64,000 bases of DNA from an uncultured Gammaproteobacteria bacterium. GTDB taxonomy: Bacteria; Patescibacteriota; Microgenomatia; Curtissbacterales; GWA2-41-24. The first letter of the stretch is position 1. Each line of letters opens with the position of its first letter. The stretch covers positions 9,096 through 73,095 of the forward strand of contig CAYGDE010000001.1 in the NCBI GenBank assembly GCA_964348615.1, read 5' to 3'. A model generated the notes under the pieces. The model was not told the DNA's origin. It saw only the letters and a list, made by a program, of their open reading frames with translations, and made no database searches. A program made the translations under genes and the position numbers. This document shows positions 14,410 to 20,556 of the stretch, one piece after another.

Positions 14410-15228
14410 TTGTTTTTGAAAACCGCTTATACTAGTTTTATGGCAACCAAAACAGAAAGCTTTAAATCTCAATTAGATAAATTAGAGGTTTACCCAAAAC
14501 TTAAAATCGACTACCCCAAAAACCCCAACCGTATGTGGGCGTTTCCAATTCTGGGTGGACTTTTTAAAATTATTATTCTCCTGCCCATATTTATAGAATT
14601 AGGACTTCTCGTCGTCTTCGATTTTGCAGTAATTATCATAAATTCGTTTTTTGTTCTCGCAACCGGTAAATACTGGCAGTTTTGTTTTGACTTTAACCTG
14701 GGTCTTACAAGACTTTTTGCAAAAGTAATGTTTTTCTTTGCAGGTCTTACCGACAAATATCCGGGGTTTGATTTTAAACTAGATGGTTTTGAACTAGATC
14801 TGGAAATGCCCAAAAATCCAAATAGACTTTTTGCTATTCCCATAGTTGGTATTCTTGCAAGGATAATTCTTTTAATCCCTTTTGGTATTTTTTCATCAAT
14901 CATTGGCAATGCTTCAAGACTAGGGATGGTCATTTCTTCAATCCCGGTATTTTTCTCAGGCAAGTATCCAGAGGCTACATATGAACTAACAAGAGACGCC
15001 ATGCGCTTGAGCGTAGCCCAAACGGCATATATTATTGGTATTCACGACAATTACCCAAGTTTCCAAATCGACTGGAAGCACAAAACATTTAAATTAGTCT
15101 TAATTGCAATCGCAATTGTATTTAGCATTTTCCAAGCCACTGTAAGTTCAGAAAAACAAACTACTCCCGAAAATAACCTTCGACCGTATCAAGATAATTT
15201 TACCCCCAACCAAAATCAATACCGCTAA
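14410..15228 (+). CDS. membrane protein with two tandem DUF4389-like repeats
   Basis: Internal duplication: YPKNPNRMWAFPILGG...GKYW...DKYPGFDF and MPKNPNRLFAIPIVGI...GKYPEA...DNYPSFQI. Confidence 0.6.
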   Translation: MFLKTAYTSFMATKTESFKSQLDKLEVYPKLKIDYPKNPNRMWAFPILGGLFKIIILLPIFIELGLLVVFDFAVIIINSFFVLATGKYWQFCFDFNLGLTRLFAKVMFFFAGLTDKYPGFDFKLDGFELDLEMPKNPNRLFAIPIVGILARIILLIPFGIFSSIIGNASRLGMVISSIPVFFSGKYPEATYELTRDAMRLSVAQTAYIIGIHDNYPSFQIDWKHKTFKLVLIAIAIVFSIFQATVSSEKQTTPENNLRPYQDNFTPNQNQYR

Positions 15229-15292: not shown

Positions 15293-15321
15293 TTGACAAC
15301 ACTTAGCACTCGTTGTATATT
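15293..15321 (+). promoter_or_regulatory. sigma-70-like promoter of the hrcA operon (TTGACA-17-TATATT)
   Basis: TTGACA at 15293-15298 and TATATT at 15316-15321, overlapping CIRCE. Confidence 0.7.
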
Positions 15322-15441: not shown

Positions 15442-16167
15442 ATGGATCTCACAGATAGACAAAAATCATTGCTTCGGGCAGTCATCGAAAAATATATCGA
15501 AAATGCAGAACCTATTGGTTCTGAAACAGTTGAAAAAGAAGCCCGGCTTGGCGTTTCGCCAGCAACTATCAGAAATGAAATGGTTCGTTTAACCAGTCTT
15601 GGTTATTTAAAACAGCCACACACCTCGGCCGGACGTATTCCCACTTCCATGGGAATGAAATTTTATGTCGATCAGTTAATGGAAGAAAAATCACTCTCGC
15701 TAAAAGACGAAGTAGCCATAAAAGAAGAATTAAAAGAAGATGAAAACACTCGCTTCGACAAACTTCTAAGGCACACAGCCAGAACTTTGGCAGACCAAAC
15801 AGGTTCTCTGGCAGTTGTAACCGATGAAGACAACGACATTTACTCAGCAGGCATGGCAAATATTTTAGATATGCCCGAATTTTTTGATATCGACATCACA
15901 AAAACTGTCCTTTCCATGTTAGACAAAATTGAACTGTTAAACCAGGTAACAGACCAACTTTTGCCAGAAGACCAGATAAAAATTCTCTTTGGTGAAGAAT
16001 TAGGTGTACCTTTTCTTGAACCATGCGGTTTTATAGTTACTAGATATCAAACACCAAACCATAGAGGCGTTTTGGGGTTAATTGGCCCAAACAGGCTCAA
16101 TTTTTCAGTCGCTATTCCGACAATGAGATATTTTTCGCAGATTCTTTCCGAAATGCGGATGATATAA
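15442..16167 (+). CDS. hrcA: heat-inducible transcription repressor HrcA (short form, 241 aa)
   Basis: MDLTDRQKSLLRAVIEKYIENAEPIGSETV...SPATIRNEM; operon context with CIRCE. Confidence 0.85.
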   Translation: MDLTDRQKSLLRAVIEKYIENAEPIGSETVEKEARLGVSPATIRNEMVRLTSLGYLKQPHTSAGRIPTSMGMKFYVDQLMEEKSLSLKDEVAIKEELKEDENTRFDKLLRHTARTLADQTGSLAVVTDEDNDIYSAGMANILDMPEFFDIDITKTVLSMLDKIELLNQVTDQLLPEDQIKILFGEELGVPFLEPCGFIVTRYQTPNHRGVLGLIGPNRLNFSVAIPTMRYFSQILSEMRMI

Positions 16168-16174
16168 AACTAAA

Positions 16175-16678
16175 ATGCCAAAAAGCAAAAAAACCGTCAG
16201 CAAACCAGAGGAATCAAACAAGCAAGACCAAAAAGCGCAAGAGCTAGAAAGTCAGCTCAAAAGAGCACTTGCAGATTACCACAATCTGGAAAGAAGAGTC
16301 GAAGAAGAAAGAAGACTTTTGTCCTCACTGTCATCTGCTCTTCTTATCGAAAAATTCTTGCCGGTTTTAGACAATTTAGAAAATGCTAATACACACTTAA
16401 ACGACCAGGGTTTAGAAATTGTAATAAAGCAGTTTAAAAACCTTTTGCAATCCGAGGGTGTAGAAGAAATTGATTCAAAAGGGCAGCAATTCGATCCAAA
16501 CTTGCACGAAGCGATTGAGACGCAAGAAGGGGAAAACAACAATATGATTGTAAGAATAACAAGAAAAGGTTATAAAATGAATGATAAGGTACTGCGACCA
16601 GCACAAGTAATAGTTGAAAGAAAAACAATTCAAAACGAACAGAAAGGAGAAGATCAAGTAGCGGACACCGCAAATTAA
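16175..16678 (+). CDS. grpE: nucleotide exchange factor GrpE
   Basis: ADYHNLERRVEEERR, coiled coil, C-terminal beta domain. Confidence 0.85.
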   Translation: MPKSKKTVSKPEESNKQDQKAQELESQLKRALADYHNLERRVEEERRLLSSLSSALLIEKFLPVLDNLENANTHLNDQGLEIVIKQFKNLLQSEGVEEIDSKGQQFDPNLHEAIETQEGENNNMIVRITRKGYKMNDKVLRPAQVIVERKTIQNEQKGEDQVADTAN

Positions 16679-18603: not shown

Positions 18604-19128
18604 GTGTTGGATTCTAAATCCGAAGTAACAGCAACTGCCCAACAAGAAGGTAACCCAAATAAAAATTTGGTACTTTCACTTGAAGGCTGGCGCCCAATAT
18701 TTCATTTTGCTTTTAGGAATTGGCTTAACAAACAAACTGGCATGAGTATCCTTTCAAGAAAACAATTAGTTAGAATTTTGAGTGATCCTAATGAGCCAGA
18801 AGAAAGACAGGCATTGGCAAATGACCTTTATTTTGCAAGGGGGGCACAGAACATAACCAAAGATCCGGATGAAAAAATGTTTCCTAGAACTGAAACAATA
18901 AGTGCACAATCTTTTGACGATAATACTGTTCTTTTTCTTGCCGAAAATCTAGATCCTGATTATGTCTATCAACCATTCTTTGAAAGACAAGTGCATGATA
19001 GAAGACTTGATGATTTTAAAAAACCTGTTCAAGCTGGCCTTCCAGGTTTTGGTAAAGAAACAGCAGAACAAAAACCCAGAGAATTACCAAGACCGCAATT
19101 TATCGCAAAACTGGTAAGTAAATTTTAA
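18604..19128 (+). CDS. hypothetical protein (GTG start 3 nt after the dnaK stop), embedded in the dnaK operon
   Basis: 174-aa ORF tightly coupled to dnaK; I recognise no family. Confidence 0.5.
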   Translation: MLDSKSEVTATAQQEGNPNKNLVLSLEGWRPIFHFAFRNWLNKQTGMSILSRKQLVRILSDPNEPEERQALANDLYFARGAQNITKDPDEKMFPRTETISAQSFDDNTVLFLAENLDPDYVYQPFFERQVHDRRLDDFKKPVQAGLPGFGKETAEQKPRELPRPQFIAKLVSKF

Positions 19129-19129
19129 A

Positions 19130-19576
19130 ATGGCCAATCTTAAAACCGACATTTTTACCCTCTGTGATTACGCAACTGTTTCAAGAGAACAGAAACTTTC
19201 TGTAATTGGCATTTTCGACCAGTTTTTCATTGCCGATGTGCCAACCACTTGGCCTAAAATGTTTTTAGTCGCAGTCCTTTCTGGCCAAGCAAATCAAGAA
19301 TACGATATCACCTTAAAAATAATCCCGCCCGCCAAAACAGGCCAAAACTTTCCAGACAAAGAATTAAAAGTCACACTTGGTAACAATGGCCGGGCAAATT
19401 TAATTACAGAACTTGTCAATTTCCCACTACCCTTAGTCGGAACATACAAAATTGAAATTCTAGAAGGTAATCCGCCCGCAGGTGAAAAAGTCGGCCATTT
19501 CGAATTTAAGGTTAACAAAACAACTGCAACCTACACCGGAGGACAAGATCTCAAAGGTAACAAAATTGTTAACTAA
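19130..19576 (+). CDS. hypothetical protein, embedded in the dnaK operon
   Basis: 148-aa ORF starting 2 nt after the previous stop; I recognise no family. Confidence 0.5.
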   Translation: MANLKTDIFTLCDYATVSREQKLSVIGIFDQFFIADVPTTWPKMFLVAVLSGQANQEYDITLKIIPPAKTGQNFPDKELKVTLGNNGRANLITELVNFPLPLVGTYKIEILEGNPPAGEKVGHFEFKVNKTTATYTGGQDLKGNKIVN

Positions 19577-19603
19577 AAATCCTCTCTTTTATATAATACC
19601 CAT

Positions 19604-20514: not shown

Positions 20515-20527
20515 CCCAAGTAGATTA

Positions 20528-20550
20528 AGGCGCTCGTGCGCCTTTTTTAA
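20528..20550 (+). terminator. intrinsic terminator hairpin AGGCGC-TCGT-GCGCCT + T6, placed between the dnaJ stop / nusA promoter and the nusA ATG
   Basis: Perfect 6-bp GC stem followed by TTTTTT; ends 7 nt before the nusA start. Confidence 0.65.
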
Positions 20551-20556
20551 TAAACA

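Follow-up and report, generated by a model that had tools for sequence, protein, structure and literature searches.

The bacterial Hsp70 system is usually taken to consist of three fixed components, DnaK, DnaJ and GrpE, and to our knowledge extra, lineage-specific Hsp70 subunits are limited to very few cases, for example DafA in Thermus and CbpM in gamma-proteobacteria. Small heat shock proteins (sHSPs) of the HSP20/alpha-crystallin family, such as IbpA/IbpB, are heat-induced beta-sandwich proteins of ~16 kDa with a functional C-terminal extension that hold clients for DnaK. The canonical HrcA operator, CIRCE (controlling inverted repeat of chaperone expression), is an inverted repeat of the form TTAGCACTC-N9-GAGTGCTAA. 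In Thermus, DnaJ has no zinc finger and needs DafA, a product of the dnaK operon, for assembly of a DnaK3-DnaJ3-DafA3 complex, in which DafA is a stoichiometric subunit that is displaced by substrate (PMC3727329). Similarly, the zinc-finger-less CbpA of E. coli is regulated by the small co-encoded protein CbpM, which binds the J domain, turns off co-chaperone activity and is related to transcriptional regulators (PMC4063869). Here we describe a heat-shock locus in which two further genes, open reading frames (ORFs) ORF1 and ORF2, are located between dnaK and dnaJ. The locus lies on a 64-kb stretch of contig CAYGDE010000001.1 (assembly GCA_964348615.1, positions 9,096 to 73,095), hereafter the window, which originates from a genome of Candidatus Curtissbacteria (Patescibacteria, Candidate Phyla Radiation or CPR). 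We found that ORF2 belongs to the Pfam family DUF6941 and that this family keeps a fixed place behind dnaK throughout the lineage, at a junction where other small genes, ORF1 among them, come and go.

The gene order was determined from the ORF list and the raw sequence as CIRCE-like operator, hrcA, grpE, dnaK, ORF1, ORF2 and dnaJ (Table 1), which bears out the order and positions given in an earlier note on this DNA. The same note had proposed tight coupling of both ORFs to dnaK, and indeed only 2 nt lie between the dnaK stop codon and the ORF1 GTG, and the ORF2 ATG follows the ORF1 stop after 1 nt, with a Shine-Dalgarno sequence (AAGGA) located within the final dnaK codons, 6 nt ahead of the ORF1 GTG. 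No terminator-like site was found on the + strand between dnaK and dnaJ, which supports read-through. No paralogues of either ORF were found elsewhere in the window.

ORF2 had been considered unrecognisable in the earlier note, which had to be revised: it matches Pfam DUF6941 (PF22091) with 60.5 bits (cut-off 27), residues 8-111 aligning to positions 2-111 of the 125-position model, and the match lies above the gathering threshold in 32/32 aligned homologues (best E = 1.2e-20). ORF2 is a member of this already catalogued family, to which no function is assigned. A word-indexed search returned 183 homologues, and nearly all of those carrying an organism name were from Candidatus Curtissbacteria. 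Mean column identity among the 32 aligned homologues was 76%, and the single Cys of ORF2 (C12) was kept in at least 90% of homologues. ORF2 is under strong purifying selection, with a ratio of nonsynonymous to synonymous substitution rates (dN/dS) of 0.04-0.07 in five genome pairs, and it has diverged across lineages about as much as GrpE and the C-terminal domain of DnaJ. Searches against NCBIfam, PHROGs, PADLOC and PDB sequences, together with tblastn against plasmids and phages, gave no matches to ORF2.

We assembled 91 related loci (designated by L-numbers) through exact-protein look-up and scans of GTDB representative genomes and JGI metagenomes, several of them on contigs of 0.5-1.15 Mb; pattern-based searches gave only Curtissbacteria-like DUF6941 genes. 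Among the loci with enough sequence, dnaK is directly upstream of DUF6941 in 84/85 and dnaJ is downstream in 80/81, and the dnaK-DUF6941-dnaJ arrangement spans ~44 distinct lineages. The gap between dnaK and DUF6941 is at most 14 nt in more than half of the loci and typically ranges from -1 to 2 nt, so that the genes abut or overlap. The question raised in the earlier note, whether both ORFs always lie between dnaK and dnaJ, has a positive answer for ORF2, in essentially every Curtissbacteria locus examined, but not for ORF1, which is confined to about six lineages. This lineage-wide link between DUF6941 and dnaK is previously undescribed; the literature searched held no mention of DUF6941 or PF22091, and nothing relevant on Curtissbacteria together with DnaK or on Patescibacteria together with HrcA. 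The exceptions to the synteny are two metagenome contigs that are probably assembly chimeras. One (L087:372-1460) joins the initial 97 residues of DUF6941 to unrelated sequence, and in the other (L088:1465-1875) just the last DnaK residues precede DUF6941, behind an alcohol-dehydrogenase gene.

The AlphaFold2 model of ORF2, built from the 32-sequence alignment, is a seven-strand beta-sandwich with a mean predicted local distance difference test score (pLDDT) of 69 and a predicted template modelling score (pTM) of 0.62, in agreement with the earlier expectation of a beta-rich protein with a single Cys. The most conserved segment of the protein is residues 15-37 (..S..Q.LS..G.FDQF..). The C-terminal tail, residues 129-148, is disordered in the model and includes the invariant residues K130, T131, T132, T134, Y135, K145 and N148; its motif is VNKTTATY...K[VIL]xN-COOH. 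ORF2 is therefore predicted, on the basis of this model, to be a cytosolic immunoglobulin (Ig)-like beta-sandwich of ~130 residues, to which a strongly conserved unstructured tail is attached. Its fold matches include the C-terminal domain of glycoside hydrolase family 3 (GH3) glucosidases, Ig-like domains of GH2 enzymes, complement macroglobulin (MG) domains, the B. subtilis protein IPI (3isy) and the Ig-like protein PA1606 (3n6y). Two candidate identities were rejected. Profile comparison with hhalign dismissed ORF2 as a divergent copy of the DnaJ C-terminal domain or of the DnaK substrate-binding domain, and at the level of sequence it was dismissed as an sHSP, the HSP20 Pfam models giving no match at E up to 5 in 32/32 members. 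The top 50 fold matches contained no sHSP structure.

ORF1 represents a much smaller and faster evolving family. Only two homologues, with 99% and 77% identity, were found in the indexed search, and an exhaustive HMMER search of 1.84 billion representative proteins yielded nine cluster representatives, 157-175 aa in length, with E values between 1e-82 and 1e-4. A family profile built from ten sequences, with the test cases excluded, gave 56.7 bits, along the full length, to the L010 ORF that lies between dnaK and DUF6941 and 27.8 bits to its counterpart in L011. Pairwise BLAST and Smith-Waterman comparisons of ORF1 with these two ORFs were marginal only, and we count both as family members because the family profile detects them. 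Genomic context was available for the window, L030, the group L010/L033/L037/L038, L011, L031/L032 and L034, which together represent ~six lineages, and every member with a readable context is located between dnaK, which it abuts, and DUF6941, which it abuts or overlaps. On a tree of DnaK and DUF6941 the ORF1-bearing lineages form two separate clades, and the gene is missing from other near relatives such as L026 and L027, whose ORF2 shares 85% and 81% identity with that of the window; this patchy distribution therefore reflects repeated loss or exchange. The dN/dS ratio of ORF1 relative to its 77% homologue, which occupies the same position, is 0.26, and within the same genome pairs dN of ORF1 amounts to 2-8 times the ORF2 value.

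N-termini are aligned across 14 members of the ORF1 family, and the AlphaFold2 model based on 14 sequences is all-helical (mean pLDDT 81), with a core at residues 20-139 above 90, a confident C-terminal helix, and disorder at residues 1-18 and 140-158. The protein is hydrophilic, as had been noted (grand average of hydropathicity, GRAVY, -0.72), whereas the basic region placed earlier at its N-terminus lies further inward: net charge is -1 in the first 30 residues and +5 in residues 31-60. Foldseek found no fold match, with best E values of 2.9 in PDB and 0.1 in BFVD and template modelling (TM) scores below 0.3. Similarly, no match was obtained for ORF1 in Pfam, NCBIfam, PHROGs, PADLOC or PDB sequences, nor in Pfam for ORF1 together with 13 relatives. 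ORF1 contains no HPD motif, and hhalign led us to reject it as a GrpE-like or J-like protein. Judging from the model, ORF1 would be the founder of a new and very small family whose helical fold is without a match in PDB or BFVD.

ORF1 is not the only gene found at this position. The slot between dnaK and DUF6941 is empty in most lineages, and in several that do not carry the ORF1 family it is filled by short ORFs of 59-81 aa, which fall into at least three groups scattered over the tree (Table 1). No relation of these to the ORF1 family profile could be detected, and a loose similarity of their C-terminal helices was considered too weak to use. The slot ORFs of L005/L069 and of L022/L023 are under purifying selection. 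Overall, small genes under selection are gained and lost at the dnaK/DUF6941 junction, while DUF6941 itself never moves.

Upstream of the locus, the operator overlaps the spacer and -10 box of a sigma-70-type promoter (Table 1). Its arms comprise a perfect 8-bp repeat, TTAGCACT/AGTGCTAA, separated by 12 nt, and the spacer between the 9-mers is 10 nt, 1 nt longer than in canonical CIRCE. A strict 9-N9-9 CIRCE pattern allowing up to 3 mismatches consequently gave no match, because of this extra nucleotide. The CIRCE-like operator is the single match in the window, with none expected by chance. Comparison with relatives revealed a module TTGACA-N5-TTAGCACTC-N9/10-xxxTGCTAA located 5' of hrcA in most of 24 related loci examined. 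The right arm is degenerate in most lineages (GTCTGCTAA or ATTGCTAA in place of GAGTGCTAA), and among the regions upstream of hrcA compared in L001-L031 perfect 8-bp arms were retained only in the window's own clade (L009-L011). As the operator lies at the promoter and the operon itself includes hrcA, we take the unit to be a CIRCE/HrcA-controlled heat-shock operon in which HrcA binding is predicted. Just 5' of the hrcA promoter (window 14410-15228) lies a gene for a predicted 272-aa membrane protein with two DUF4389 repeats; such a protein is also encoded at L005:1702-2445 and in L009, L018 and L022-L024, which makes it a neighbour in several but not all related loci.

At the other end of the locus, the dnaJ product contains Pfam DnaJ (residues 6-67) and DnaJ_C (135-265) domains, has one Cys and no CXXCXGXG zinc-finger match, in accordance with the missing zinc-finger domain pointed out before. 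Residues 75-125 are Gly/Phe-rich, and the protein aligns end to end with the 291-aa PRK14299 model. Orthologues in related loci are all 279-290 aa long and have an identical two-domain makeup. This DnaJ is of class B (type II), comprising a J domain, a G/F region and C-terminal domains without a zinc finger.

The 27-nt spacer between ORF2 and dnaJ has no Shine-Dalgarno sequence, and a promoter-like sequence ends 6 nt before the dnaJ ATG (Table 1). A TATAAT -10 box located 4-9 nt (mostly 6) before the dnaJ start, again with no Shine-Dalgarno sequence, was present in 22/53 distinct related upstream regions, among them those of L001, L008, L009, L014, L017-L019, L022, L043, L046, L047, L071, L081 and L086. 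The same test returned 0/44 for dnaK, 0/52 for ORF2, 0/17 for grpE and 0/24 for hrcA. As judged by consensus matching only, dnaJ is probably transcribed from a promoter of its own into a leaderless mRNA, and it is possibly outside CIRCE control. If dnaJ is transcribed separately as a leaderless message, ORF1 and ORF2 mark the end of the CIRCE unit and do not occupy its middle. The earlier placement of the two genes inside the operon is doubtful, given the TATAAT box before dnaJ.

The spacer between DUF6941 and dnaJ varies from 5 to 290 nt across loci and is often strongly structured. For example, long palindromes of the form GTCATTCTGAGTGAAACGAAGAATC...GATTCTTCG... are located at L028:1052-1130 and L031:4990-5060, with folding energies down to -64 kcal/mol; these may be REP-like repeats (repetitive extragenic palindromes) or terminators separating the dnaK unit from dnaJ. 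A different element, conserved over ~90 nt and present in about six lineages, was observed after dnaJ codon 6 (Table 1). It has the layout TATAAT-N6-ATG GCT ACC AAA CGT GAC, then TTAGCCCCGCAG-hairpin-ACGAGGAGCGCAGGCTTTTTGAATTTAT, then ATG AAA AAA GAC TAC TAC..., and in L010 a perfect 12-nt direct repeat, ATGAAAAAAGAC, flanks it. Compensatory changes affect 4/28 pairs of the hairpin. The element has no Rfam match, and no copy was found in the window or among viral contigs. It may be a mobile insertion of small size that brings in a new start codon, or it may be regulatory, forming a 5' structure of the attenuator or thermometer kind.

Table 1. Features of the heat-shock locus in the window and features of related loci outside it (positions preceded by an L-number).
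Feature	Position	Strand	Remark
Sigma-70-type promoter of heat-shock unit, TTGACA-17-TATATT	15293..15321	+	11/12 consensus matches
CIRCE-like HrcA operator, TTAGCACTC-N10-AAGTGCTAA	15303..15330	+	overlaps promoter spacer and -10 box
hrcA	15442..16167	+	Pfam HrcA and HrcA_DNA-bdg
grpE	16175..16678	+	Pfam GrpE, E = 7.7e-38
dnaK, 633 aa	16700..18601	+	ORF and translation; orthologues in related loci annotated Pfam HSP70
ORF1, GTG start, 174 aa	18604..19128	+	small uncatalogued helical family (predicted fold) of the slot between dnaK and DUF6941
ORF2, ATG start, 148 aa	19130..19576	+	Pfam DUF6941 (PF22091)
Promoter-like sequence before dnaJ, TTAACT-17-TATAAT	19569..19597	+	10/12 consensus matches; ends 6 nt before dnaJ ATG
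dnaJ, 283 aa	19604..20455	+	Pfam DnaJ and DnaJ_C; class B / type II
Intrinsic-terminator-like hairpin 3' of dnaJ, AAGGCGC-TCGT-GCGCCTT, then T run	20527..20554	+	
Slot ORF family, 59-60 aa	L005:5819-6001, L069:2822-3001		dN/dS 0.27
Another slot ORF, 60 aa	L021:4817-4999		
Slot ORF group, 62-81 aa	L022:4761-5000, L023:4759-5004, L046:2779-2991, L073:2813-3001		dN/dS 0.14 (L022/L023)
Element of ~90 nt in dnaJ	L010:5436-5545, L016:5526-5635, L024:4927-5036, L028:1142-1240, L034:3987-4100, L062:3555-3665		

The genomic evidence for a dnaK-coupled pair of genes is strong, and from it we infer function. Both ORFs are real genes coupled to dnaK and located downstream of a CIRCE-like operator. Our tentative preference, which we regard as quite possible, is that ORF2 acts as a fixed Hsp70 accessory and ORF1 as an optional modulator. 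ORF2 is probably made together with DnaK. Release of HrcA from CIRCE would induce ORF2 along with dnaK, and translation by coupling from the dnaK mRNA would bring it to DnaK-like levels. The most likely role of ORF2 would be to hold clients or to bridge DnaK to the class-B DnaJ, with the conserved tail perhaps serving as a docking peptide. In role it would resemble Thermus DafA or an sHSP. ORF1, presumably co-expressed with DnaK at a similar level, would be optional and lineage-specific, modulating or serving as an adaptor for either DnaK or DUF6941.

Several results weigh against such roles. The partnership of ORF1 and ORF2 with Hsp70 is something we infer rather than observe. The ORF2 model is of moderate quality only, as its mean pLDDT indicates, and residues 15-37 are not resolved in it. 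Foldseek matches of ORF2 in PDB are generic Ig and fibronectin type III (FnIII) sandwiches (E of 3e-3 or higher, TM ~0.4-0.46), and no chaperone is found among the top 50. Profiles of ORF1 and ORF2 compared by hhalign with GrpE, DnaJ, DnaJ C-terminal domain and DnaK substrate-binding domain alignments from the same loci reached a probability of 0.7% at most, and ORF2 compared with Mj HSP16.5 and E. coli IbpA reached 0.1-0.2%. Mirror-tree and partial-Mantel comparisons of ORF2 with its operon partners did not discriminate between the partners: even the two domains of DnaJ showed no covariation, and hrcA-grpE ranked first among the pairs. Most lineages do without ORF1, which may be a passenger. 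Its GC content at third codon positions (GC3) is 0.21 vs 0.33-0.36 for hrcA, grpE, dnaK, ORF2 and dnaJ, which may indicate recent acquisition, weak codon selection or fast evolution.

A bolder version of the accessory reading makes DUF6941 a new class of Hsp70 co-chaperone, an obligate beta-sandwich subunit produced 1:1 with DnaK that would supply the client holding or DnaK-DnaJ bridging missing from the zinc-finger-less DnaJ of these minimal CPR cells, and the slot proteins (ORF1 with an unseen helical fold) interchangeable, fast-evolving regulatory subunits. The whole would amount to a modular Hsp70 machine tuned to each lineage. We consider this version somewhat unlikely.

Among the alternatives, the two products could be independent, co-regulated stress effectors that do not bind Hsp70. 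DUF6941 could serve, for instance, as an ATP-independent holdase or as a protease inhibitor of the beta-sandwich type, sharing the HrcA/CIRCE promoter since the same conditions call for it, and ORF1 would likewise be an effector of its own. Operon position proves co-expression only, the Ig-like fold is generic, its weak matches include a proteinase inhibitor (3isy) and 3n6y (TM 0.38-0.46), and the covariation analysis gave no specific link to DnaK. However, a start that abuts or overlaps the dnaK stop across ~44 lineages suggests matched production beyond shared induction, and neither a sequence relation to sHSPs nor a significant holdase or inhibitor fold match was found for DUF6941. We judge independent effectors unlikely.

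Alternatively, the 3' junction of dnaK could be a permissive, well-expressed site, and the small genes found there could be passengers unrelated to proteostasis that are held in place by operon inertia. The slot has hosted at least 4 mutually unrecognisable ORF families scattered over the DnaK and DUF6941 tree, and ORF1, with its absence from L026 and L027, its atypical GC3 and its evolution 2-8 times faster than that of ORF2, is the gene for which this model is especially plausible. DUF6941 does not fit the description, since it is universal, never displaced and conserved like DnaJ or GrpE. Furthermore, ORF1-family members with known context occur only in the slot, which is unexpected for a generic mobile passenger, and purifying selection acts on the slot families that were tested (dN/dS 0.14-0.27). 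We regard the passenger model as unlikely. Finally, the view that the ORFs are frames open by chance, or remnants of pseudogenes, within a long spacer between dnaK and dnaJ, to which the very few homologues and the GTG start of ORF1 might point and which the earlier note had tied to relatives with directly adjacent dnaK and dnaJ, has next to no probability left and is refuted by the conservation and selection data: relatives do not show such adjacency, dN/dS is well under 1 for both ORF1 and ORF2 (0.26 and 0.04-0.07), ORF1 has a confident predicted fold and N-termini aligned across 14 members, and ORF2 is found in 183 proteins with a curated Pfam match.

A whole CPR class carries a strongly conserved extra gene abutting dnaK, beside a slot of fast-turnover small proteins. 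If the proteins act on DnaK, the locus would show how tiny genomes with a reduced chaperone set rebuild proteostasis, would provide the first functional handle on Pfam DUF6941, and would add a helical fold without PDB or BFVD match. The predicted leaderless and separately promoted dnaJ bears on how DnaK:DnaJ stoichiometry is set in these bacteria. Should they be unrelated to Hsp70, the finding would reduce to two hypothetical proteins in a conserved neighbourhood.

Compared with known systems, the locus resembles the Firmicutes hrcA-grpE-dnaK-dnaJ operon in gene order, in its repressor and in having an inverted-repeat operator that overlaps the promoter. In contrast to the Firmicutes operon, there are one or two additional genes behind dnaK, the CIRCE spacer has 1 nt more, most relatives have a degenerate right arm, and dnaJ has no zinc finger and apparently its own leaderless promoter. 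ORF2 is also similar to sHSPs as a predicted beta-sandwich of ~16 kDa with a C-terminal tail, but its C-terminal motif is K-[VIL]-x-N vs I-x-I. CbpM, whose relatives are presumably MerR-type regulators, sets a precedent for operon-encoded regulators specific to the zinc-finger-less class of DnaJ. Neither ORF1 nor ORF2 matched a regulator in Pfam or PDB sequences, and fold searches of both against solved structures, which should include that of CbpA-CbpM (PMC4063869), gave nothing significant.

A further parallel is with DafA. Whereas DafA is a protein of ~8 kDa encoded after dnaJ, both genes described here precede dnaJ, and their products are predicted to be a 16-kDa beta-sandwich (ORF2) and a 20-kDa helical protein (ORF1). 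The likeness is one of role and context only: in Curtissbacteria, as in Thermus, small lineage-specific genes are coupled to dnaK beside a DnaJ without a zinc finger.

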